From assembly GCF_003334335.1 (NCBI RefSeq), contig NZ_QOWQ01000004.1: a DNA stretch of 64,000 nt; one strand, 5' to 3'. Shown here piece by piece: positions 4,148 to 51,683 of the stretch. This stretch comes from Escherichia coli (GTDB lineage: Bacteria > Pseudomonadota > Gammaproteobacteria > Enterobacterales > Enterobacteriaceae). How positions within the stretch are numbered: the first letter of the stretch is position 1; every line of letters starts with the position of its first letter. The notes below the pieces were generated by a model. It made no database searches and was not told the DNA's origin. It saw nothing but the letters and a program-made list of their open reading frames with translations. The position numbers and the translations under genes were made by a program.

Positions 4148-4182
4148 TTTGCACCTCAAAAAAGAGTGGCAAAGGACTTGAG

Positions 4183-4275
4183 AAGGAGCCTCAAATCCCT
4201 TCGCCGGCGTTATCCGGATCAGGTTCGACGGGTATTTTCTCAGCGCACGCGTACGCGTGGCACCCCGTTGAGAAC
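4183..4275 (-). promoter_or_regulatory. TPP (THI-box) riboswitch in thiBPQ leader
   Basis: On minus strand: GGGGTGCCACGCG...CTGAGAAAATACCCGTCGAACCTGATCCGGATAACGCCGGCGAAGGGA, matching conserved TPP aptamer elements (CUGAGA, ACCUGAUC, GGAUAAUGCC-like, GAAGGGA); boundaries approximate. Confidence 0.75.
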
Positions 4276-4310
4276 GGCGTTAGTGTAGTGATTTTGTTAT
4301 CAACCAGCAA

Positions 4311-5966
4311 TCATGGATCCGGTGGCGCAAACCACGCTGATTTAAAATCGAACCAGCCGAGGGTATTCATGCGCAGGCCGCGCATACTGCGTTGCCCCTG
4401 AATGATCAGCCAGTGGTGCAATAATGGCACCATCGCTTTGCTGGCGACCAGTTGCTGGCACCAGTTCGCCAGATTCATCTCGCCATTGCGCCAGCGAGCA
4501 GCGTCGGCTTGCCAGTCAATGGGAATGCAATGTTGTAGCAGTGGCACTTCGCATAAATGTGCGAAAACAGAGAAGTCCAGCGGCAGGGTAAAGTTGGCGC
4601 TGTTTAGCCAGATATCACTTTCGATCTCTCCTGTATGCCACTGATCGTAGTCGATCTCTTTGATTTTCAGCGTGACCTGGTGACTTGCCAGAATCTGCTG
4701 CATGATCCCGGCAATCACCCGATGCTCACTGTGATCCTGATAAAAGGTTAGGGTGAGGCTTTCCAGGCCAGCCGGTTTTTCGCTCTTTATGGTGCGGGCA
4801 TGGTGCCAACGGGGGAGCAGTCCATAAGCCGGGAACCACAGTTGCTGGTACTGTTCCTCAGCGAAATAGACCAGATTAGTTGGAGAAAGCACATAGCTTA
4901 CCCAGTCCCTGACTTGCTGATTCGCCCCGCGATGGGTGCGGCTGTCGAACAGTAAATAGTAGCAACCTTCCTCCAGGCGGCTTTCAATCTCTTTTTCCTC
5001 GCCCTGTGGACCTTTTAGCATCAGCCCTCCGGCTGGCTCGTCGGCAATTTCCGGCAGAACCCAGACGTTAACTTCGTCGATTAATGCCCGGTAACCGAAG
5101 AAGTCATCGAATGCCTGAATTTTCAGTTGATTGGTGCTGTTGCGAATCACCGCATACGGACCGGTGCCGATGGGATGGCTGGCAAAGTTACTGAGGGTTT
5201 CCCATTCGCGCGGCAGGATCATCGCCGGAACTTGCCCCAGCAGTAACGGTAACCAGCGGTCCGGTTGCGTGAGATGGATATCCAGCGTCCAGGGCGTCGG
5301 CGACACAATGTCAGCAATATGCGAATAGAGCGGCAGCGTATTGATTCGTTTTAAAGAGGCGATCACATCGTCCATTTCCAGTTCACGACCATGGTGAAAA
5401 TGGACTCCTGGACGCAAAAAGAAACGCCAGTGAAGCGGTGAAATTTGCTGCCAGTGGTGGGCGATGTCTGCTTCCAGTTCCCCATTTTCCTCATTTATGC
5501 GCGTTAGCGAACTGAAGATTTGCCGGGCGATATGGGTTTCGGAACGGCGCAATGCGCTGCCAGGTAGCAGATTACGCAACGGACGATAGTAGAGCACGCG
5601 CAGGATGTGCCGCCCCTGGCGGAAGCTGCGGCCCAGATGAGAAACCAGCATTTGCCGCACAGTCGCTTTGTCGCCAACCAACTGCACCAGTTGATCGATA
5701 CGATCCTGCTCCAGCAGGTCTTCCGCCCGCTGTTGCTGAAGCGCCAGCCCGGTATAGAGGAATGTCAGACGCGAGCGTTTACCGCGCCCGACTTCCGCTT
5801 CCCACGTCAGCCAGCCGCGATCCTGCATGGTGTTGAGCAGGGTGCGCATATGACGACGCGAGCAGCTCAATAACGCTGCCAGTTCGTTGAGCGTTGTGTC
5901 CTGCGATTTACCCTCGCAGCATTGCCACAGGCGGATGAACTGTTGTTGCAGACGAGCAGATGGCAT
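4311..5966 (-). CDS. sgrR: transcriptional regulator SgrR (HTH plus solute-binding domain)
   Basis: ORF 4311..5987 trimmed to [10 protein letters not shown]; N-terminal HTH, C-terminal solute-binding-protein-like domain; divergent from sgrS. Confidence 0.9.
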
Positions 5967-6033
5967 AAAAGGGGAACTCCTGTGCAAAAGACAGCAATTT
6001 TATTTTCCCTATATTAAGTCAATAATTCCTAAC

Positions 6034-6260
6034 GATGAAGCAAGGGGGTGCCCCATGCGTCAGTTTTATCAGCACTATTTTACCGCGACAGCGAAGTTGT
6101 GCTGGTTGCGTTGGTTAAGCGTCCCACAACGATTAACCATGCTTGAAGGACTGATGCAGTGGGATGACCGCAATTCTGAAAGTTGACTTGCCTGCATCAT
6201 GTGTGACTGAGTATTGGTGTAAAATCACCCGCCAGCAGATTATACCTGCTGGTTTTTTTT
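6034..6260 (+). ncRNA. sgrS: SgrS small RNA (dual-function: base-pairing RNA that also encodes SgrT)
   Basis: Divergent from sgrR; contains the sgrT ORF; 3' stem-loop CCAGCAGATTATACCTGCTGG followed by T8 ending at 6260; 5' end approximate. Confidence 0.75.
6055..6186 (+). CDS. sgrT: small protein SgrT (43 aa)
   Basis: Internal Met of ORF 5887..6186: MRQFYQHYFTATAKLCWLRWLSVPQRLTMLEGLMQWDDRNSES. Confidence 0.7.
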   Translation: MRQFYQHYFTATAKLCWLRWLSVPQRLTMLEGLMQWDDRNSES

Positions 6261-6287
6261 ATTCTCGCCGCGCTAAAAAGGGAACGT

Positions 6288-7466
6288 ATGATCTGGATAA
6301 TGACGATGGCTCGCCGTATGAACGGTGTTTACGCGGCATTTATGCTGGTCGCTTTTATGATGGGGGTGGCCGGGGCGCTACAGGCTCCTACATTGAGCTT
6401 ATTTCTGAGTCGTGAGGTTGGCGCGCAACCTTTCTGGATCGGCCTCTTTTATACGGTGAATGCTATTGCTGGGATCGGCGTAAGCCTCTGGTTGGCAAAA
6501 CGTTCTGACAGTCAGGGCGATCGGCGAAAACTGATTATATTTTGCTGTTTGATGGCTATCGGCAATGCGCTATTGTTTGCATTTAATCGTCATTATCTGA
6601 CGCTTATCACCTGTGGTGTGCTTCTGGCATCTCTGGCCAATACGGCAATGCCACAGTTATTTGCTCTGGCGCGGGAATATGCGGATAACTCGGCGCGAGA
6701 AGTGGTGATGTTTAGCTCGGTGATGCGTGCGCAGCTTTCTCTGGCATGGGTTATCGGTCCACCGTTGGCCTTTATGCTGGCGTTGAATTACGGCTTTACG
6801 GTGATGTTTTCGATTGCCGCCGGGATATTCACACTCAGTCTGGTATTGATTGCATTTATGCTTCCGTCTGTGGCGCGGGTAGAACTGCCGTCGGAAAATG
6901 CTTTATCAATGCAAGGTGGCTGGCAGGATAGTAACGTACGGATGTTATTTGTCGCCTCGACGTTAATGTGGACCTGCAACACCATGTACATTATTGATAT
7001 GCCGTTGTGGATCAGTAGCGAGTTAGGATTGCCAGACAAACTGGCGGGTTTCCTGATGGGGACGGCAGCTGGACTGGAAATACCAGCAATGATTCTGGCT
7101 GGCTACTATGTCAAACGTTATGGTAAGCGGCGAATGATGGTCATAGCAGTGGCGGCAGGAGTACTGTTTTACACCGGATTGATTTTCTTTAATAGCCGTA
7201 TGGCGTTGATGACGCTGCAACTTTTTAACGCTGTATTTATCGGCATTGTTGCGGGTATTGGGATGCTATGGTTTCAGGATTTAATGCCTGGAAGAGCGGG
7301 GGCAGCTACCACCTTATTTACTAACAGTATTTCTACCGGGGTAATTCTGGCTGGCGTTATTCAGGGAGCAATTGCACAAAGTTGGGGGCACTTTGCTGTC
7401 TACTGGGTAATTGCGGTTATTTCTGTTGTCGCATTATTTTTAACCGCAAAGGTTAAAGACGTTTGA
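6288..7466 (+). CDS. setA: sugar efflux transporter (MFS)
   Basis: 392-aa ORF with about 12 predicted TM helices; position downstream of sgrS. Confidence 0.85.
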   Translation: MIWIMTMARRMNGVYAAFMLVAFMMGVAGALQAPTLSLFLSREVGAQPFWIGLFYTVNAIAGIGVSLWLAKRSDSQGDRRKLIIFCCLMAIGNALLFAFNRHYLTLITCGVLLASLANTAMPQLFALAREYADNSAREVVMFSSVMRAQLSLAWVIGPPLAFMLALNYGFTVMFSIAAGIFTLSLVLIAFMLPSVARVELPSENALSMQGGWQDSNVRMLFVASTLMWTCNTMYIIDMPLWISSELGLPDKLAGFLMGTAAGLEIPAMILAGYYVKRYGKRRMMVIAVAAGVLFYTGLIFFNSRMALMTLQLFNAVFIGIVAGIGMLWFQDLMPGRAGAATTLFTNSISTGVILAGVIQGAIAQSWGHFAVYWVIAVISVVALFLTAKVKDV

Positions 7467-7514
7467 TGACGTGGACGATAGCGGAAAGCCCGGTCATTTG
7501 ACCGGGCAAGGGGA

Positions 7515-9531
<2,017 letters not shown>

Positions 9532-12196: not shown

Positions 12197-12244
12197 GGTT
12201 TGGGTCCTTGTCTCTTTTAGAGCGCCTCGCTTCGGGCATAAAAA

Positions 12245-12275
12245 AACCCGCGCAATGGCGCGGGTTTTTTGTTTG
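12245..12275 (-). terminator. leu operon attenuator (intrinsic terminator)
   Basis: Minus strand AAACCCGCGCCATTGCGCGGGTTTTTTT: GC stem-loop plus T-run immediately downstream of leuL. Confidence 0.7.
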
Positions 12276-12288
12276 ACTGCGTGCTGGC

Positions 12289-12375
12289 TTAATGCTGGAT
12301 GCCGCTCACTCGTCTACCGCGCAAAGAAGATGCGTTTAGTAGTAGTAGACCGATAAAGCGAACGATGTGAGTCAT
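12289..12375 (-). CDS. leuL: leu operon leader peptide (28 aa, four consecutive Leu codons)
   Basis: Minus-strand [31 protein letters not shown] with CTA CTA CTA CTA run, followed by attenuator hairpin. Confidence 0.8.
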
Positions 12376-13034
12376 TAAATCAGCTCCAGATGAATGCGAT
12401 ATGCTTTTAGAGTTACTGGATACAAAAACGGATGTCAACCCTGACGCAATAAAAACGTCCCGCCAGCGTGAGTTCTGCATCCGTAAAATTAGCTAATTGT
12501 GCTGCGGTGGTTAAAGTAAGCGATATTAATTTCTGCTTAACTACCGACGCTTTTCATCGGTTGACATATTTCAGCATAAATTTTTGCATCTAATCAACGA
12601 GGAAAAAGGGGACAAAATGCACGCGTTGCAAAACCTATCCTGATGATTTGTATTGAATTATATGTTTTGCGATTTTTTTTGATATTGATTTGGTGAATAT
12701 TATTGATCAATTAATGTTAAGAATTAATGCATTAAATATATAAATTAATTATTAAATAAGCACATTTAATCCATTTTGTAGATGATTGAGTATTCGCGGT
12801 AGTTATGATTAGATTGTTTTCGCAACAAAAACATTATGGATTATTATGCTGTGGTAAATGACTCATTCCACGGCAATGGATTCTGTTTTTATCAGAACCC
12901 GTATCTTTATGTTTTCCGAATTTTACTCATTTTGCTTTTTCTTATTTTATATGCATGATAAATCATATTCTTCAGGATTATTTCTCTGCATTCCAATAAG
13001 GGAAAGGGAGTTAAGTGTGACAGTGGAGTTAAGT

Positions 13035-21846: not shown

Positions 21847-23320
21847 TTTGCGCGACCTTCTTGCTCCGTGGGTGCCAGACGCACCTTCGCGAGCACTGCG
21901 AGAGATGACACTCGACAGCCGTGTGGCTGCGGCGGGCGATCTCTTTGTAGCTGTAGTAGGTCATCAGGCGGACGGGCGTCGATATATCCCGCAGGCGATA
22001 GCGCAAGGTGTGGCTGCCATTATTGCAGAGGCGAAAGATGAGGCGACCGATGGTGAAATCCGTGAAATGCACGGCGTACCGGTCATCTATCTCAGCCAGC
22101 TCAACGAGCGTTTATCTGCACTGGCGGGCCGCTTTTACCATGAACCCTCTGACAATTTACGTCTCGTGGGCGTAACGGGCACCAACGGCAAAACCACGAC
22201 TACCCAGCTGTTGGCGCAGTGGAGCCAACTGCTTGGCGAAACCAGCGCGGTAATGGGCACCGTTGGTAACGGCCTGCTGGGGAAAGTGATCCCGACAGAA
22301 AATACAACCGGTTCGGCAGTCGATGTTCAGCATGAGCTGGCGGGGCTGGTGGATCAGGGCGCGACGTTTTGCGCAATGGAAGTTTCCTCCCACGGGCTGG
22401 TACAGCACCGTGTGGCGGCATTGAAATTTGCGGCGTCGGTCTTTACCAACTTAAGCCGCGATCACCTTGATTATCATGGTGATATGGAACACTACGAAGC
22501 CGCGAAATGGCTGCTTTATTCTGAGCATCATTGCGGTCAGGCGATTATTAACGCCGACGATGAAGTGGGCCGCCGCTGGCTGGCAAAACTGCCGGACGCG
22601 GTTGCGGTATCAATGGAAGATCATATTAATCCGAACTGTCACGGACGCTGGTTGAAAGCGACCGAAGTGAACTATCACGACAGCGGTGCGACGATTCGCT
22701 TTAGCTCAAGTTGGGGCGATGGCGAAATTGAAAGCCATCTGATGGGCGCTTTTAACGTCAGCAACCTGCTGCTCGCGCTGGCGACACTGTTGGCACTCGG
22801 CTATCCACTGGCTGATCTGCTGAAAACCGCCGCGCGTCTGCAACCGGTTTGCGGACGTATGGAAGTGTTCACTGCGCCAGGCAAACCGACGGTGGTGGTG
22901 GATTACGCGCATACGCCGGATGCACTGGAAAAAGCCTTACAGGCGGCGCGTCTGCACTGTGCGGGCAAGCTGTGGTGTGTCTTTGGCTGTGGTGGCGATC
23001 GCGATAAAGGTAAGCGTCCACTGATGGGCGCAATTGCCGAAGAGTTTGCTGACGTGGCGGTGGTGACGGACGATAACCCGCGTACCGAAGAACCGCGTGC
23101 CATCATCAACGATATTCTGGCGGGAATGTTAGATGCCGGATATGCCAAAGTGATGGAAGGCCGTGCTGAAGCGGTGACTTGCGCCGTTATGCAGGCTAAA
23201 GAGAATGATGTGGTACTGGTCGCGGGCAAAGGCCATGAAGATTACCAGATTGTTGGCAATCAGCGTCTGGACTACTCCGATCGCGTCACGGTGGCGCGTC
23301 TGCTGGGGGTGATTGCATGA
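21833..23320 (+). CDS. murE: UDP-MurNAc-tripeptide synthetase (meso-DAP adding)
   Basis: 495-aa ORF; Mur ligase P-loop GTNGKTTT; overlaps ftsI 3' end. Confidence 0.95.
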
Positions 23321-24675
23321 TTAGCGTAACCCTTAGCCAACTTACCGACATTCTCAACGGTGAACTGCAAGGTGCAGATATCACCCTTGATGCTGTAACC
23401 ACTGATACCCGAAAACTGACGCCGGGCTGCCTGTTTGTTGCCCTGAAAGGCGAACGTTTTGATGCCCACGATTTTGCCGACCAGGCGAAAGCTGGCGGCG
23501 CAGGCGCACTACTGGTTAGCCGTCCGCTGGACATCGACCTGCCGCAGTTAATCGTCAAGGATACGCGTCTGGCGTTTGGTGAACTGGCTGCATGGGTTCG
23601 CCAGCAAGTTCCGGCGCGCGTGGTTGCTCTGACGGGGTCCTCCGGCAAAACCTCCGTTAAAGAGATGACGGCGGCGATTTTAAGCCAGTGCGGCAACACG
23701 CTTTATACGGCAGGCAATCTCAACAACGACATCGGTGTACCGATGACGCTGTTGCGCTTAACGCCGGAATACGATTACGCAGTTATTGAACTTGGCGCGA
23801 ACCATCAGGGCGAAATAGCCTGGACTGTGAGTCTGACTCGCCCGGAAGCTGCGCTGGTCAACAACCTGGCAGCGGCGCATCTGGAAGGTTTTGGCTCGCT
23901 TGCGGGTGTCGCGAAAGCGAAAGGTGAAATCTTTAGCGGCCTGCCGGAAAACGGTATCGCCATTATGAACGCCGACAACAACGACTGGCTGAACTGGCAG
24001 AGCGTAATTGGCTCACGCAAAGTGTGGCGTTTCTCACCCAATGCCGCCAACAGCGATTTCACCGCCACCAATATCCATGTGACCTCGCACGGTACGGAAT
24101 TTACCCTACAAACCCCAACCGGTAGCGTCGATGTTCTGCTGCCGTTGCCGGGGCGTCACAATATTGCGAATGCGCTGGCAGCCGCTGCGCTCTCCATGTC
24201 CGTGGGCGCAACGCTTGATGCTATCAAAGCGGGGCTGGCAAATCTGAAAGCTGTTCCAGGCCGTCTGTTCCCCATCCAACTGGCAGAAAACCAGTTGCTG
24301 CTCGACGACTCCTACAACGCCAATGTCGGTTCAATGACTGCAGCAGTCCAGGTACTGGCTGAAATGCCGGGCTACCGCGTGCTGGTGGTGGGCGATATGG
24401 CGGAACTGGGCGCTGAAAGCGAAGCCTGCCATGTACAGGTGGGCGAGGCGGCAAAAGCTGCTGGTATTGACCGCGTGTTAAGCGTGGGTAAACAAAGCCA
24501 TGCTATCAGCACCGCCAGCGGCGTTGGCGAACATTTTGCTGATAAAACTGCGTTAATTACGCGTCTTAAATTACTGATTGCTGAGCAACAGGTAATTACG
24601 ATTTTAGTTAAGGGTTCACGTAGTGCCGCCATGGAAGAGGTAGTACGCGCTTTACAGGAGAATGGGACATGTTAG
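23317..24675 (+). CDS. murF: UDP-MurNAc-pentapeptide synthetase (D-Ala-D-Ala adding)
   Basis: 452-aa ORF; P-loop GSSGKTS; ATGA overlap with murE. Confidence 0.95.
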
Positions 24676-25751
24676 TTTGGCTGGCCGAACATTTGGTCAA
24701 ATATTATTCCGGCTTTAACGTCTTTTCCTATCTGACGTTTCGCGCCATCGTCAGCCTGCTGACCGCGCTGTTCATCTCATTGTGGATGGGCCCGCGTATG
24801 ATTGCTCATTTGCAAAAACTTTCCTTTGGTCAGGTGGTGCGTAACGACGGTCCTGAATCACACTTCAGCAAGCGCGGTACGCCGACCATGGGCGGGATTA
24901 TGATCCTGACGGCGATTGTGATCTCCGTACTGCTGTGGGCTTACCCGTCCAATCCGTACGTCTGGTGCGTGTTGGTGGTGCTGGTAGGTTACGGTGTTAT
25001 TGGCTTTGTTGATGATTATCGCAAAGTGGTGCGTAAAGACACCAAAGGGTTGATCGCTCGTTGGAAGTATTTCTGGATGTCGGTCATTGCGCTGGGTGTC
25101 GCCTTCGCCCTGTACCTTGCCGGCAAAGACACGCCCGCAACGCAGCTGGTGGTCCCATTCTTTAAAGATGTGATGCCGCAGCTGGGGCTGTTCTACATTC
25201 TGCTGGCTTACTTCGTCATTGTGGGTACTGGCAACGCGGTAAACCTGACCGATGGTCTCGACGGCCTGGCAATTATGCCGACCGTATTTGTCGCCGGTGG
25301 TTTTGCGCTGGTGGCGTGGGCGACCGGCAATATGAACTTTGCCAGCTACTTGCATATACCGTATCTGCGACACGCCGGGGAACTGGTTATTGTCTGTACC
25401 GCGATAGTCGGGGCAGGACTGGGCTTCCTGTGGTTTAACACCTATCCGGCGCAGGTCTTTATGGGCGATGTAGGTTCGCTGGCGTTAGGTGGTGCGTTAG
25501 GCATTATCGCCGTACTGCTACGTCAGGAATTCCTGCTGGTGATTATGGGGGGCGTGTTCGTGGTAGAAACGCTTTCTGTCATCCTGCAGGTCGGCTCCTT
25601 TAAACTGCGCGGACAACGTATTTTCCGCATGGCACCGATTCATCACCACTATGAACTGAAAGGCTGGCCGGAACCGCGCGTCATTGTGCGTTTCTGGATT
25701 ATTTCGCTGATGCTGGTTCTGATTGGTCTGGCAACGCTGAAGGTACGTTAA
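24669..25751 (+). CDS. mraY: phospho-MurNAc-pentapeptide translocase
   Basis: 360-aa polytopic membrane ORF; overlaps murF. Confidence 0.95.
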
Positions 25752-25753
25752 TC

Positions 25754-27070
25754 ATGGCTGATTATCAGGGTAAAAATGTCGTCATTATCGGCCTGGGCCT
25801 CACCGGGCTTTCCTGCGTGGACTTTTTCCTCGCTCGCGGTGTGACGCCGCGCGTTATGGATACGCGTATGACACCGCCTGGCCTGGATAAATTACCCGAA
25901 GCCGTAGAACGCCACACGGGCAGTCTGAATGATGAATGGCTGATGGCGGCAGATCTGATTGTCGCCAGTCCCGGTATTGCACTGGCGCATCCATCCTTAA
26001 GCGCTGCCGCTGATGCCGGAATCGAAATCGTTGGCGATATCGAGCTGTTCTGTCGCGAAGCACAAGCACCGATTGTGGCGATTACCGGTTCTAACGGCAA
26101 AAGCACGGTCACCACGCTAGTGGGTGAAATGGCGAAAGCGGCGGGGGTTAACGTTGGTGTGGGTGGCAATATTGGCCTGCCTGCGTTGATGCTACTGGAT
26201 GATGAGTGTGAACTGTACGTGCTGGAACTGTCGAGCTTCCAGCTGGAAACCACCTCCAGCTTACAGGCGGTAGCAGCGACCATTCTGAACGTGACTGAAG
26301 ATCATATGGATCGCTATCCGTTTGGTTTACAACAGTATCGTGCAGCAAAACTGCGCATTTACGAAAACGCGAAAGTTTGCGTGGTTAATGCTGATGATGC
26401 CTTAACAATGCCGATTCGCGGTGCGGATGAACGCTGCGTCAGCTTTGGCGTCAACATGGGTGACTATCACCTGAATCATCAGCAGGGCGAAACCTGGCTG
26501 CGGGTTAAAGGCGAGAAAGTGCTGAATGTGAAAGAGATGAAACTTTCCGGGCAGCATAACTACACCAATGCGCTGGCGGCGCTGGCGCTGGCTGATGCTG
26601 CAGGGTTACCGCGTGCCAGCAGCCTGAAAGCGTTAACCACATTCACTGGTCTGCCGCATCGCTTTGAAGTTGTGCTGGAGCATAACGGCGTACGTTGGAT
26701 TAACGATTCGAAAGCGACCAACGTCGGCAGTACGGAAGCGGCGCTGAATGGCCTGCACGTAGACGGCACACTGCATTTGTTGCTGGGTGGCGATGGTAAA
26801 TCGGCGGACTTTAGCCCACTGGCGCGTTACCTGAATGGCGATAACGTACGTCTGTATTGTTTCGGTCGTGACGGCGCGCAGCTGGCGGCGCTACGCCCGG
26901 AAGTGGCAGAACAAACCGAAACTATGGAACAGGCGATGCGCTTGCTGGCTCCGCGTGTTCAGCCGGGCGATATGGTTCTGCTCTCCCCAGCCTGTGCCAG
27001 CCTTGATCAGTTCAAGAACTTTGAACAACGAGGCAATGAGTTTGCCCGTCTGGCGAAGGAGTTAGGTTGA
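25754..27070 (+). CDS. murD: UDP-MurNAc-L-Ala:D-Glu ligase
   Basis: 438-aa ORF; P-loop GSNGKSTVT. Confidence 0.95.
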
Positions 27071-32652: not shown

Positions 32653-33911
32653 TCAAGGCGACGGACAGAAAACTGGTAGTAGGACTGGAGATTGGTACCG
32701 CGAAGGTTGCCGCTTTAGTAGGGGAAGTTCTGCCCGACGGTATGGTCAATATCATTGGCGTGGGCAGCTGCCCGTCGCGTGGTATGGATAAAGGCGGGGT
32801 GAACGACCTCGAATCCGTGGTCAAGTGCGTACAACGCGCCATTGACCAGGCAGAATTGATGGCAGATTGTCAGATCTCTTCGGTATATCTGGCGCTTTCT
32901 GGTAAGCACATCAGCTGCCAGAATGAAATTGGTATGGTGCCTATTTCTGAAGAAGAAGTGACGCAAGAAGATGTGGAAAACGTCGTCCATACCGCGAAAT
33001 CGGTGCGTGTGCGCGATGAGCATCGTGTGCTGCATGTGATCCCGCAAGAGTATGCGATTGACTATCAGGAAGGGATCAAGAATCCGGTAGGACTTTCGGG
33101 CGTGCGGATGCAGGCAAAAGTGCACCTGATCACATGTCACAACGATATGGCGAAAAACATCGTCAAAGCGGTTGAACGTTGTGGGCTGAAAGTTGACCAA
33201 CTGATATTTGCCGGACTGGCATCAAGTTATTCGGTATTGACGGAAGATGAACGTGAACTGGGTGTCTGCGTCGTCGATATCGGTGGTGGTACAATGGATA
33301 TCGCCGTTTATACCGGTGGGGCATTGCGCCACACTAAGGTAATTCCTTATGCTGGCAATGTCGTGACCAGTGATATCGCTTACGCCTTTGGCACGCCGCC
33401 AAGCGACGCCGAAGCGATTAAAGTTCGCCACGGTTGTGCGCTGGGTTCCATCGTTGGAAAAGATGAGAGCGTGGAAGTGCCGAGCGTAGGTGGTCGTCCG
33501 CCACGGAGTCTGCAACGTCAGACACTGGCAGAGGTGATCGAGCCGCGCTATACCGAGCTGCTCAACCTGGTCAACGAAGAGATATTGCAGTTGCAGGAAA
33601 AGCTTCGCCAACAAGGGGTTAAACATCACCTGGCGGCAGGCATTGTATTAACCGGTGGCGCAGCGCAGATCGAAGGTCTTGCAGCCTGTGCTCAGCGCGT
33701 GTTTCATACGCAAGTGCGTATCGGCGCGCCGCTGAACATTACCGGTTTAACGGATTATGCTCAGGAGCCGTATTATTCGACGGCGGTGGGATTGCTTCAC
33801 TATGGGAAAGAGTCACATCTTAACGGTGAAGCTGAAGTAGAAAAACGTGTTACAGCATCAGTTGGCTCGTGGATCAAGCGACTCAATAGTTGGCTGCGAA
33901 AAGAGTTTTAA
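32649..33911 (+). CDS. ftsA: cell division protein FtsA (actin-like ATPase)
   Basis: 420-aa ORF; actin/Hsp70 fold; ATGA overlap with ftsQ. Confidence 0.95.
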
Positions 33912-33971
33912 TTTTTATGAGGCCGACGATGATTACGGCCTCAGGCGACAGGCACAAATCGGAGAGAAACT

Positions 33972-35123
33972 ATGTTTGAACCAATGGAACTTACCAATGA
34001 CGCGGTGATTAAAGTCATCGGCGTCGGCGGCGGCGGCGGTAATGCTGTTGAACACATGGTGCGCGAGCGCATTGAAGGTGTTGAATTCTTCGCGGTAAAT
34101 ACCGATGCACAAGCGCTGCGTAAAACAGCGGTTGGACAGACGATTCAAATCGGTAGCGGTATCACCAAAGGACTGGGCGCTGGCGCTAATCCAGAAGTTG
34201 GCCGCAATGCGGCTGATGAGGATCGCGATGCATTGCGTGCGGCGCTGGAAGGTGCAGACATGGTCTTTATTGCTGCGGGTATGGGTGGTGGTACCGGTAC
34301 AGGTGCAGCACCAGTCGTCGCTGAAGTGGCAAAAGATTTGGGTATCCTGACCGTTGCTGTCGTCACTAAGCCTTTCAACTTTGAAGGCAAGAAGCGTATG
34401 GCATTCGCGGAGCAGGGGATCACTGAACTGTCCAAGCATGTGGACTCTCTGATCACTATCCCGAACGACAAACTGCTGAAAGTTCTGGGCCGCGGTATCT
34501 CCCTGCTGGATGCGTTTGGCGCAGCGAACGATGTACTGAAAGGCGCTGTGCAAGGTATCGCTGAACTGATTACTCGTCCGGGTTTGATGAACGTGGACTT
34601 TGCAGACGTACGCACCGTAATGTCTGAGATGGGCTACGCAATGATGGGTTCTGGCGTGGCGAGCGGTGAAGACCGTGCGGAAGAAGCTGCTGAAATGGCT
34701 ATCTCTTCTCCGCTGCTGGAAGATATCGACCTGTCTGGCGCGCGCGGCGTGCTGGTTAACATCACGGCGGGCTTCGACCTGCGTCTGGATGAGTTCGAAA
34801 CGGTAGGTAACACCATCCGTGCATTTGCTTCCGACAACGCGACTGTGGTTATCGGTACTTCTCTTGACCCGGATATGAATGACGAGCTGCGCGTAACCGT
34901 TGTTGCGACAGGTATCGGCATGGACAAACGTCCTGAAATCACTCTGGTGACCAATAAGCAGGTTCAGCAGCCAGTGATGGATCGCTACCAGCAGCATGGG
35001 ATGGCTCCGCTGACCCAGGAGCAGAAGCCGGTTGCTAAAGTCGTGAATGACAATGCGCCGCAAACTGCGAAAGAGCCGGATTATCTGGATATCCCAGCAT
35101 TCCTGCGTAAGCAAGCTGATTAA
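33972..35123 (+). CDS. ftsZ: cell division GTPase FtsZ
   Basis: 383-aa ORF; tubulin signature [12 protein letters not shown]; C-terminal [14 protein letters not shown]. Confidence 0.97.
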
Positions 35124-36945: not shown

Positions 36946-39651
36946 ATGCTAATCAAATTGTTAACTAAAGTTTTCGGTAGTCGTAACGATCGCACCCTGC
37001 GCCGGATGCGCAAAGTGGTCAACATCATCAATGCCATGGAACCGGAGATGGAAAAACTCTCCGACGAAGAACTGAAAGGGAAAACCGCAGAGTTTCGTGC
37101 ACGTCTGGAAAAAGGCGAAGTGCTGGAAAATCTGATCCCGGAAGCTTTCGCCGTGGTACGTGAGGCAAGTAAGCGCGTCTTTGGTATGCGTCACTTCGAC
37201 GTTCAGTTACTCGGCGGTATGGTTCTTAACGAACGCTGCATCGCCGAAATGCGTACCGGTGAAGGAAAAACCCTGACCGCAACGCTGCCTGCTTACCTGA
37301 ACGCACTAACCGGTAAAGGCGTGCACGTAGTTACCGTCAACGACTACCTGGCGCAACGTGACGCCGAAAACAACCGTCCGCTGTTTGAATTCCTTGGCCT
37401 GACTGTCGGTATCAACCTGCCGGGCATGCCAGCACCGGCAAAGCGCGAAGCTTACGCAGCTGACATCACTTACGGTACGAACAACGAATACGGCTTTGAC
37501 TACCTGCGCGACAACATGGCGTTCAGCCCTGAAGAACGTGTACAGCGTAAACTGCACTATGCGCTGGTGGACGAAGTGGACTCCATCCTGATCGATGAAG
37601 CGCGTACACCGCTGATCATTTCCGGCCCGGCAGAAGACAGCTCGGAAATGTATAAACGCGTGAATAAAATTATTCCGCACCTGATCCGTCAGGAAAAAGA
37701 AGACTCCGAAACCTTCCAGGGCGAAGGCCACTTCTCGGTGGACGAAAAATCTCGCCAGGTGAACCTGACCGAACGTGGTCTGGTGCTGATTGAAGAACTG
37801 CTGGTGAAAGAGGGCATCATGGATGAAGGGGAGTCTCTGTACTCTCCGGCCAACATCATGCTGATGCACCACGTAACGGCGGCGCTGCGCGCTCATGCGC
37901 TGTTTACCCGTGACGTCGACTACATCGTTAAAGATGGTGAAGTTATCATCGTTGACGAACACACCGGTCGTACCATGCAGGGCCGTCGCTGGTCCGATGG
38001 TCTGCACCAGGCTGTGGAAGCGAAAGAAGGTGTGCAGATCCAGAACGAAAACCAAACGCTGGCTTCGATCACCTTCCAGAACTACTTCCGTCTGTATGAA
38101 AAACTGGCGGGGATGACCGGTACTGCTGATACCGAAGCTTTCGAATTTAGCTCAATCTACAAGCTGGATACCGTCGTTGTTCCGACCAACCGTCCAATGA
38201 TTCGTAAAGATCTGCCGGACCTGGTCTACATGACTGAAGCGGAAAAAATTCAGGCGATCATTGAAGATATCAAAGAACGTACTGCGAAAGGCCAGCCGGT
38301 GCTGGTGGGTACTATCTCCATCGAAAAATCGGAGCTGGTGTCAAACGAACTGACCAAAGCCGGTATTAAGCACAACGTCCTGAACGCCAAATTCCACGCC
38401 AACGAAGCGGCGATTGTTGCTCAGGCAGGTTATCCGGCTGCGGTGACTATCGCGACCAATATGGCGGGTCGTGGTACAGATATTGTGCTCGGTGGTAGCT
38501 GGCAGGCAGAAGTTGCCGCGCTGGAAAATCCGACCGCAGAGCAAATTGAAAAAATTAAAGCCGACTGGCAGGTACGTCACGATGCGGTACTGGAAGCAGG
38601 TGGCCTGCATATCATCGGTACCGAGCGTCACGAATCCCGTCGTATCGATAACCAGTTGCGCGGTCGTTCTGGTCGTCAGGGGGATGCTGGTTCTTCCCGT
38701 TTCTACCTGTCGATGGAAGATGCGCTGATGCGTATTTTTGCTTCCGACCGAGTATCCGGCATGATGCGTAAACTGGGTATGAAGCCAGGCGAAGCCATTG
38801 AACACCCGTGGGTGACTAAAGCGATTGCCAACGCCCAGCGTAAAGTTGAAAGCCGTAACTTCGACATTCGTAAGCAACTGCTGGAATATGATGACGTGGC
38901 TAACGATCAGCGTCGCGCCATTTACTCCCAGCGTAACGAACTGTTGGATGTCAGCGATGTGAGCGAAACCATTAACAGCATTCGTGAAGATGTGTTCAAA
39001 GCGACCATTGATGCCTACATTCCACCACAGTCGCTGGAAGAAATGTGGGATATTCCGGGGCTGCAGGAACGTCTGAAGAACGATTTCGACCTCGATTTGC
39101 CAATTGCCGAGTGGCTGGATAAAGAACCAGAACTGCATGAAGAGACGCTGCGTGAGCGCATTCTGGCGCAGTCCATCGAAGTGTATCAGCGTAAAGAAGA
39201 AGTGGTTGGTGCTGAGATGATGCGTCACTTCGAGAAAGGCGTCATGCTGCAAACGCTTGACTCCCTGTGGAAAGAGCACCTGGCAGCGATGGACTATCTG
39301 CGTCAGGGTATCCACCTGCGTGGCTACGCACAGAAAGATCCGAAGCAGGAATACAAACGTGAATCGTTCTCCATGTTTGCAGCGATGCTGGAGTCGTTGA
39401 AATATGAAGTTATCAGTACGCTGAGCAAAGTTCAGGTACGTATGCCTGAAGAGGTTGAGGAGCTGGAACAACAGCGTCGTATGGAAGCCGAGCGTTTAGC
39501 GCAAATGCAGCAGCTTAGCCATCAGGATGACGACTCTGCAGCCGCAGCTGCACTGGCGGCGCAAACCGGAGAGCGCAAAGTAGGACGTAACGATCCTTGC
39601 CCGTGCGGTTCTGGTAAAAAATACAAGCAGTGCCATGGCCGCCTGCAATAA
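36946..39651 (+). CDS. secA: preprotein translocase ATPase SecA
   Basis: 901-aa ORF; Walker A MRTGEGKT; C-terminal zinc motif [14 protein letters not shown]. Confidence 0.97.
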
Positions 39652-39672
39652 AAGCTAACTGTTGAAGTAAAA

Positions 39673-39696
39673 GGCGCAGGATTCTGCGCCTTTTTT
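39673..39696 (+). terminator. candidate intrinsic terminator/attenuating hairpin between secA and mutT
   Basis: GGCGCAGGATTCTGCGCC followed by TTTTTT. Confidence 0.55.

Positions 39697-40096: not shown

Positions 40097-40100
<4 letters not shown>
39711..40100 (+). CDS. mutT: 8-oxo-dGTP diphosphatase (Nudix)
   Basis: 129-aa ORF; Nudix box GGKIEMGETPEQAVVRELQEEVGI. Confidence 0.9.
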
Positions 40101-40300
<200 letters not shown>

Positions 40301-51523: not shown

Positions 51524-51683
51524 TGATTTTTCTGGTAAAAATTATCCAGAAGATGTTGTAAATCAAGCGCATATAAAAGCGCGGCAACTAAACGTAGAAC
51601 CTGTCTTATTGAGCTTTCCGGCGAGAGTTCAATGGGACAGGTTCCAGAAAACTCAACGTTATTAGATAGATAAGGAATAACCC

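Follow-up and report, generated by a model that had tools for sequence, protein, structure and literature searches.

The segment at positions 6034-6260 (+) of the window, by which we mean the whole 64-kb stretch of Escherichia coli DNA analysed, is almost certainly sgrS on the chromosome of a K-12-like E. coli (phylogroup A type), the gene of a 227-nt, dual-function, Hfq-dependent small RNA whose mechanism is already published (PMC4021124, PMC2760817, PMC2760806, PMC4509938, PMC9765468). The sgrS/sgrT locus found here is the canonical, previously characterised gene and holds no new biology. Its interest is that of a positive control, in that a textbook dual-function small RNA was recognised from raw sequence with its end coordinates exact, and that SgrS serves as a model of Hfq-dependent riboregulation, of small RNAs that encode proteins, and of a terminator that decides between small RNA and downstream mRNA. 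Sequence identity, family membership, anatomy and pairing potential were established in the present analysis, and induction, Hfq dependence, SgrT activity and read-through are taken from the literature.

Identity and genomic setting of the locus

A preliminary description of this DNA had placed sgrS at 6034-6260, and named an Rfam search, a fold of the 3' end and an alignment to the ptsG 5' UTR as checks. An Rfam scan of the whole window returned a match to RF00534 (SgrS) at 6034-6260 (+) that spans all model positions (1-232 of 232) and scores 228.8 bits (gathering score 37; E 2.7e-64), a full-length hit far over threshold. The same 227 nt are identical at every base to the annotated MG1655 sgrS (b4577, 77367-77593), so the proposed coordinates are right at both ends. 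The surrounding 3001 bases (4667-7667, compared with MG1655 76000-79000) align without a single mismatch, and sgrT (b4662) is annotated in MG1655 at the equivalent of 6055-6186. Together, the perfect 3-kb match and the identity of the 227 nt to an annotated sgrS exclude chance. The view that the region is only a chance ORF beside an unrelated terminator, with no gene present, draws on the fact that short ORFs and terminator-like hairpins are common (shuffled sequences average 0.6 terminator-like sites per 551-base stretch scanned), but it has a vanishingly small probability given the covariance match, a Pfam match for the ORF, curated annotation, and the presence of the locus as a single copy in 5400 of 5426 complete genomes. 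That last figure comes from a megablast search of 5900-6300 against complete E. coli genomes, with copies counted at 80% query coverage or more and hits annotated as sgrR, sgrT and setA; in the 26 other genomes of the 5426 this search gave no sgrS match.

The whole 64-kb window is collinear with MG1655 71334-135333, with eight single-base differences (at 246, 22242, 23141, 26593, 48754, 54859, 60629 and 62864) that all lie outside 4667-7667. Of these, two in murE are non-synonymous (I137T and H437Y), and the yabI, murD and ampE changes are synonymous. Over 22000-27000, a stretch that holds three of the differences, the window is 100% identical to other natural isolates, which indicates that the eight are natural variants of a K-12-like lineage; the window therefore derives from a K-12-like E. 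coli and not from MG1655 itself. The neighbours of sgrS-sgrT (thiB, the sroA/TPP riboswitch, sgrR, setA and leuDCBA) are common to the window and MG1655, and the spacings are equal, with 67 bp to sgrR, 27 nt to setA and no difference within the locus. Three plasmid-labelled records also carry the chromosomal region (sgrS in one search and murE-murD in another), and might be F-prime-type plasmids or replicons labelled in error.

The Rfam scan also located other RNA features in the window. A TPP riboswitch at 4178-4277 (-; 65.9 bits) lies in the thiBPQ leader between sgrR and thiB, and overlaps the SroA small RNA annotated in MG1655 at 4183-4275. A Leu_leader match at 12240-12389 (-; 145.8 bits), the leucine leader/attenuator upstream of leuABCD, contains the leuL leader peptide ORF (12289-12375). 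A full-length match to PssrA ("Plasmid-encoded Shigella sRNA A") at 33891-33980 (+; 105.5 bits) covers the 3' end of chromosomal ftsA (which ends at 33911), the ftsA-ftsZ spacer and the first bases of ftsZ (which starts at 33972), a location to which the family name is ill-suited; the antisense RNA StfZ is annotated in MG1655 opposite this match, at 33615-34166. Two tandem naRNA4 matches lie in the mutT-yacG spacer (40100-40176 and 40216-40293, +; 77.8 and 78.4 bits), an STnc40 match covers the secA 3' end and the secA-mutT spacer (39627-39696, +), and a tp2 match lies in the pdhR-aceE spacer (51568-51681, -). The naRNA4, STnc40 and tp2 matches exceed their Rfam gathering scores, and the MG1655 record annotates none of them at these positions.

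The divergent regulator, the promoter region and sgrT

The gene divergent from sgrS, described beforehand as sgrR, is indeed sgrR. It occupies 4311-5966 (-) and encodes the 551-residue transcription activator of sgrS (MG1655 b0069, same coordinates), and its product scores 1126.8 bits on the NCBIfam profile NF010149, "HTH-type transcriptional regulator SgrR" (cut-off 476), with residues 1-550 aligned to profile positions 1-551 of 552. The mechanical ORF list extends the frame to a TTG at 5987, and the profile match and annotation favour the ATG at 5966. Between this ATG and the sgrS 5' end lies a 67-bp spacer (5967-6033) that holds the SgrR-dependent sgrS promoter. This region is reported to be highly conserved and required for activation (PMC2760817, PMC4021124). 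Between the K-12-type allele and that of O157:H7, only 1 of its 67 bases differs while the 3' half of sgrS has diverged, which is consistent with the reported conservation of activation sequences (PMC2760817).

Inspection by eye located a -10-like AATAAT at 6021-6026, 7 nt before the sgrS 5' end, with no acceptable -35 element 16-18 bp upstream of it, and judged from sequence this arrangement would read as a typical activator-dependent promoter. A consensus promoter scan likewise gave no sigma-70 promoter at a suitable distance from position 6034, as expected where transcription depends on an activator. The sole plus-strand hit of that scan (AAGACA-16-TATATT, 5988-6015) was rejected as the sgrS promoter because it ends 18 nt upstream of 6034, at too great a distance to account for that 5' end. 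A promoter-like site on the minus strand (6223-6196) was also set aside as chance level (2 sites found against 0.7 +/- 0.7 expected). No direct or inverted repeats that might mark an SgrR operator were found in 5950-6060.

The 43-codon ORF that the preliminary description had read as MRQFYQHYF...DDRNSES was recovered at 6055-6186 (+), with its ATG at 6055 and the TGA stop at 6184-6186 included; its translation is MRQFYQHYFTATAKLCWLRWLSVPQRLTMLEGLMQWDDRNSES. This ORF is sgrT, as proposed, which encodes the small protein that inhibits PtsG. The product matches the Pfam SgrT family (PF15894; E 3.5e-13, residues 3-37), PGAP names the ORF "glucose uptake inhibitor SgrT", and MG1655 annotates b4662 at identical coordinates; an NCBIfam search gave no model matching SgrT. 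The ORF also has the form that characterises SgrT, a small frame (~40-54 aa) in the 5' part of sgrS with a start codon and a Shine-Dalgarno sequence. SgrT is known to inhibit the transport activity of PtsG (EIICB-Glc) (PMC4021124, PMC3901232). Four other mechanical ORFs overlap sgrS, at 6048-6146 (+), 6164-6415 (+), 6075-6200 (-) and 6133-6228 (-), and were discarded as unsupported.

Folding of sgrS nt 1-45 (-12.4 kcal/mol) predicts a local 5' hairpin at 6036-6062 (+) that covers both the sgrT Shine-Dalgarno sequence AAGGGGG (6042-6048) and the AUG, with G11-G14 paired to C18-C21 and U23 and G24 of the start codon also paired. A stem-loop directly upstream of K-12 sgrT is thought to occlude the ribosome-binding site, explaining an SgrT output below that of Salmonella (PMC2760817), and the predicted hairpin, which lies over the Shine-Dalgarno G residues and part of the AUG, matches this reported structure.

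Target pairing, termination and read-through into setA

The full-length SgrS fold (-79.2 kcal/mol, z -3.43) is more stable than those of shuffled sequences, and its seed is the most accessible of the internal segments, with a mean unpaired probability of 0.67 in the full-length ensemble. The ptsG-pairing region occupies 6200-6221 (+; SgrS nt 167-188) and holds the 13-mer CUGAGUAUUGGUG at 6207-6219 (nt 174-186), which includes G176 and G178. The seed reported for the family, 5'-CUGAGUAuUGGUG-3' (PMC2760817), is matched exactly at 6207-6219, near the 3' end. This 13-mer is nearly invariant among SgrS homologs and enteric genera (PMC2760817), and mutation of G176 and G178 abolishes ptsG regulation (PMC4021124).

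Because ptsG and manX lie outside the window, pairing was computed against the MG1655 copies. In a sliding scan of 30-nt windows, SgrS nt 167-188 paired with ptsG -29 to -8, over the Shine-Dalgarno sequence, through blocks of 4, 8 and 5 base pairs at -27.8 kcal/mol, compared with a window mean of -11.5 kcal/mol (sd 6.1). The seed is thus complementary to the ptsG 5' UTR, as the preliminary description anticipated, and the 4-8-5 arrangement is the published "5-8-4" pattern (PMC2760817). In a test restricted to SgrS nt 157-200, dinucleotide shuffling of the small RNA gave as low an energy once in 2000 trials, and shuffling of the ptsG segment twice in 2000. Less constrained measures did not separate the true pair from shuffles: an unconstrained RNAduplex of the full 227 nt with 61 nt of ptsG gave -32.8 kcal/mol, a value that 90 of 500 and 101 of 500 shuffles also reached, and is uninformative since long sequences permit loop-rich duplexes, and the longest run with G-U pairs allowed joins the U tail to an A run of the ptsG leader. 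The pairing signal resides in the interrupted 4-8-5 duplex.

These results bear on the possibility that the region is only an sgrT mRNA with a long 3' UTR, its complementarity to ptsG being fortuitous. The 43-codon ORF, its Shine-Dalgarno sequence and the Pfam SgrT match would all agree with such an mRNA, and SgrS can form no more than 8 Watson-Crick pairs in a row with the ptsG initiation region, a run that 222 of 2000 shuffles also reach. However, the interrupted duplex, rare among shuffles as noted, covers the ptsG Shine-Dalgarno sequence and lies where the RNA is most accessible. The 13-mer is moreover nearly invariant, whereas sgrT is the most variable part of the RNA and is missing in Yersinia (PMC2760817), and in O157:H7 the seed is intact although ATT stands where K-12 sgrT has its ATG. 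The mutations of G176 and G178 that abolish ptsG regulation were, in addition, made in an identical sequence (PMC4021124). We consider an sgrT-only function exceedingly improbable, and retain the reading of 6034-6260 as a regulatory RNA that also encodes SgrT.

A second target is predicted to use an overlapping part of SgrS. In a scan against manX -30 to +45, the best 30-nt window was SgrS nt 157-186 (6190-6219, +), with predicted pairing to manX +3 to +39 at -29.6 kcal/mol compared with a window mean of -16.4 kcal/mol (sd 3.8). Pairing with manX is reported to use SgrS bases upstream of the conserved region, and the predicted duplex agrees with that report (PMC4021124).

Downstream of the seed, the 3' end carries two hairpins. 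A fold of the 3' 60 nt (-17.8 kcal/mol, z -3.29) yields a small stem-loop and a terminator hairpin, and leaves the seed single-stranded. The stem-loop (6216-6229, +; GGUG-UAAAAU-CACC, 4 bp) lies just upstream of the terminator, appears in the minimum free energy and centroid structures of the 3' 60 nt and in the full-length centroid, and is part of the published Hfq-binding module; an extra stem-loop of this kind is found in most SgrS homologs and matters, with the terminator, for Hfq binding (PMC4021124). The Rho-independent terminator extends over 6231-6260 (+), with a G+C-rich hairpin made of an 8-bp stem (6231-6238/6246-6253), and a 7-nt loop, and with a T8 tract (6253-6260); the outermost pair of the stem is G-U, and the first T of the T8 is its last base (6253). 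A terminator scan, the fold and the Rfam structure line all support this element. The preliminary description correctly reported a stem-loop followed by T8, but set its start at 6240 rather than at 6231, where the stem begins, so that its range of 6240-6260 takes in only the loop end, the 3' arm and the T tract. The stem-loop, terminator and U tail together constitute the Hfq-binding module (PMC4021124, PMC4509938), and for the identical K-12 sequence both Hfq binding and SgrR-dependent induction under glucose-phosphate stress have been published (PMC4021124, PMC4509938).

The sgrS terminator is leaky, and the read-through transcript is the setA mRNA (PMC4509938, PMC9765468); stress and factors such as CspD modulate the efficiency of termination (PMC4509938, PMC9765468). 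In the window setA lies at 6288-7466 (+; MG1655 b0070), its ATG 27 nt past the sgrS 3' end, exactly as described (PMC9765468). It encodes an MFS sugar efflux transporter that scores 602.6 bits on TIGR00899, "sugar efflux transporter" (NCBIfam; cut-off 522.3), with residues 17-391 aligned to profile positions 1-375 of 375, and its score of 446.7 on the SetB equivalog falls under the cut-off of 693, which fits SetA. Taken as a statement on shared regulation, the earlier comment that setA "fits the same stress response" is correct, since read-through carries transcription from the SgrR-activated promoter on into setA (PMC9765468, PMC4509938, PMC4021124). SgrR-dependent induction of setA and a contribution of setA to stress recovery have also been published; export of alpha-methylglucoside by SetA was tested and found no support (PMC4021124).

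The short distance to setA and the documented, modulated read-through (PMC4509938, PMC9765468) could be taken to mean that the region is only the 5' leader of the setA mRNA, a regulated attenuator without any trans-acting RNA function. We regard this as highly improbable. The complementarity of the seed to ptsG is well beyond that of shuffles, the SgrS covariance model is matched over its full length, Hfq binds the terminated form, which is the functional one (PMC4509938), and trans-regulation of ptsG is published. Furthermore, about 2158 of the 5400 E. coli genomes keep sgrS without setA downstream, with the seed intact in the O157:H7 example, and thus the RNA is retained without a gene to lead into. 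A leader role for setA is real, but it is additional to the function of SgrS as a trans-acting RNA and not exclusive of it.

Published mechanism and comparison with related systems

The mechanism is known from published work on this same sequence. On a build-up of sugar phosphates, SgrR, whose gene is divergent, activates the sgrS promoter, and the seed of the Hfq-dependent RNA (nt 167-188, core CUGAGUAUUGGUG) then pairs over the ptsG Shine-Dalgarno sequence while bases beside the seed pair with manX. Such pairing stops translation and sets off decay of the mRNA, so that the cell makes fewer sugar transporters. Acting as an mRNA, SgrS also gives rise to the 43-residue SgrT, an inhibitor of PtsG protein that is already present, with the 5' hairpin over the ribosome-binding site probably keeping SgrT output low in K-12. 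At the 3' end, the terminator hairpin, U tail and preceding stem-loop serve as the Hfq-binding module; transcripts that run past the leaky terminator no longer bind Hfq and become the mRNA of setA, 27 nt downstream.

Within E. coli, the K-12-type locus (at least 99% identical) occurs in about 3239 complete genomes, with setA present in all seven of the records listed. A diverged allele (90-95% identical) occurs in about 2158 genomes (~40%), and its match stops at the sgrS terminator; among the five records listed there is no setA under the match, and in the one inspected, O157:H7 86-24 (its region L002 3001-3400 compared with window 6034-7466), leuD lies directly downstream. That genome also carries the type III secretion system effector gene espY2 between thiB and sgrR. 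Like the locus described here, the O157:H7/CFT073-type sgrS lies beside sgrR, has a near-identical promoter and first ~120 nt and an identical 13-mer, and ends in a terminator hairpin and U tract; unlike it, it has diverged in the SgrT C-terminus, the spacer, the terminator loop and the U tract, and lacks setA. In O157:H7, sgrT (L002 3156-3287, corresponding to window 6055-6186) begins with ATT and has the C-terminus …EELMQWEGSHSDY; the ATT has been described as a point mutation that removes SgrT (PMC2760817). RefSeq/PGAP still calls this ORF an intact "glucose uptake inhibitor SgrT". Two such sharply distinct haplotypes might carry out the stress response in functionally different ways, for example through unequal termination efficiency, a stronger or weaker Hfq module or altered SgrT activity, although we think this quite unlikely. 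The basic differences among K-12, CFT073 and O157:H7 sgrS were already described in 2009 (PMC2760817), and little of such a reading would therefore be new.

SgrS of Salmonella enterica also combines two functions, and contains sgrT, the conserved seed and a terminator (PMC2760817, PMC4021124). It differs in encoding an SgrT of 40 aa, in lacking the 5' stem-loop that occludes the ribosome-binding site in K-12 and consequently producing more SgrT, and in placing its terminator 22 nt after the pairing region, compared with about 10 nt in K-12 (PMC2760817). A more distant comparison is AzuCR of E. coli, which is unrelated in sequence and in which the coding and pairing sequences overlap (PMC8915982). 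In SgrS of the window, unlike in AzuCR, the ORF (6055-6186) and the seed (6200-6221) are physically separate. RNAIII of Staphylococcus aureus and SR1 of Bacillus subtilis are other dual-function small RNAs, with sequences unrelated to that of SgrS.
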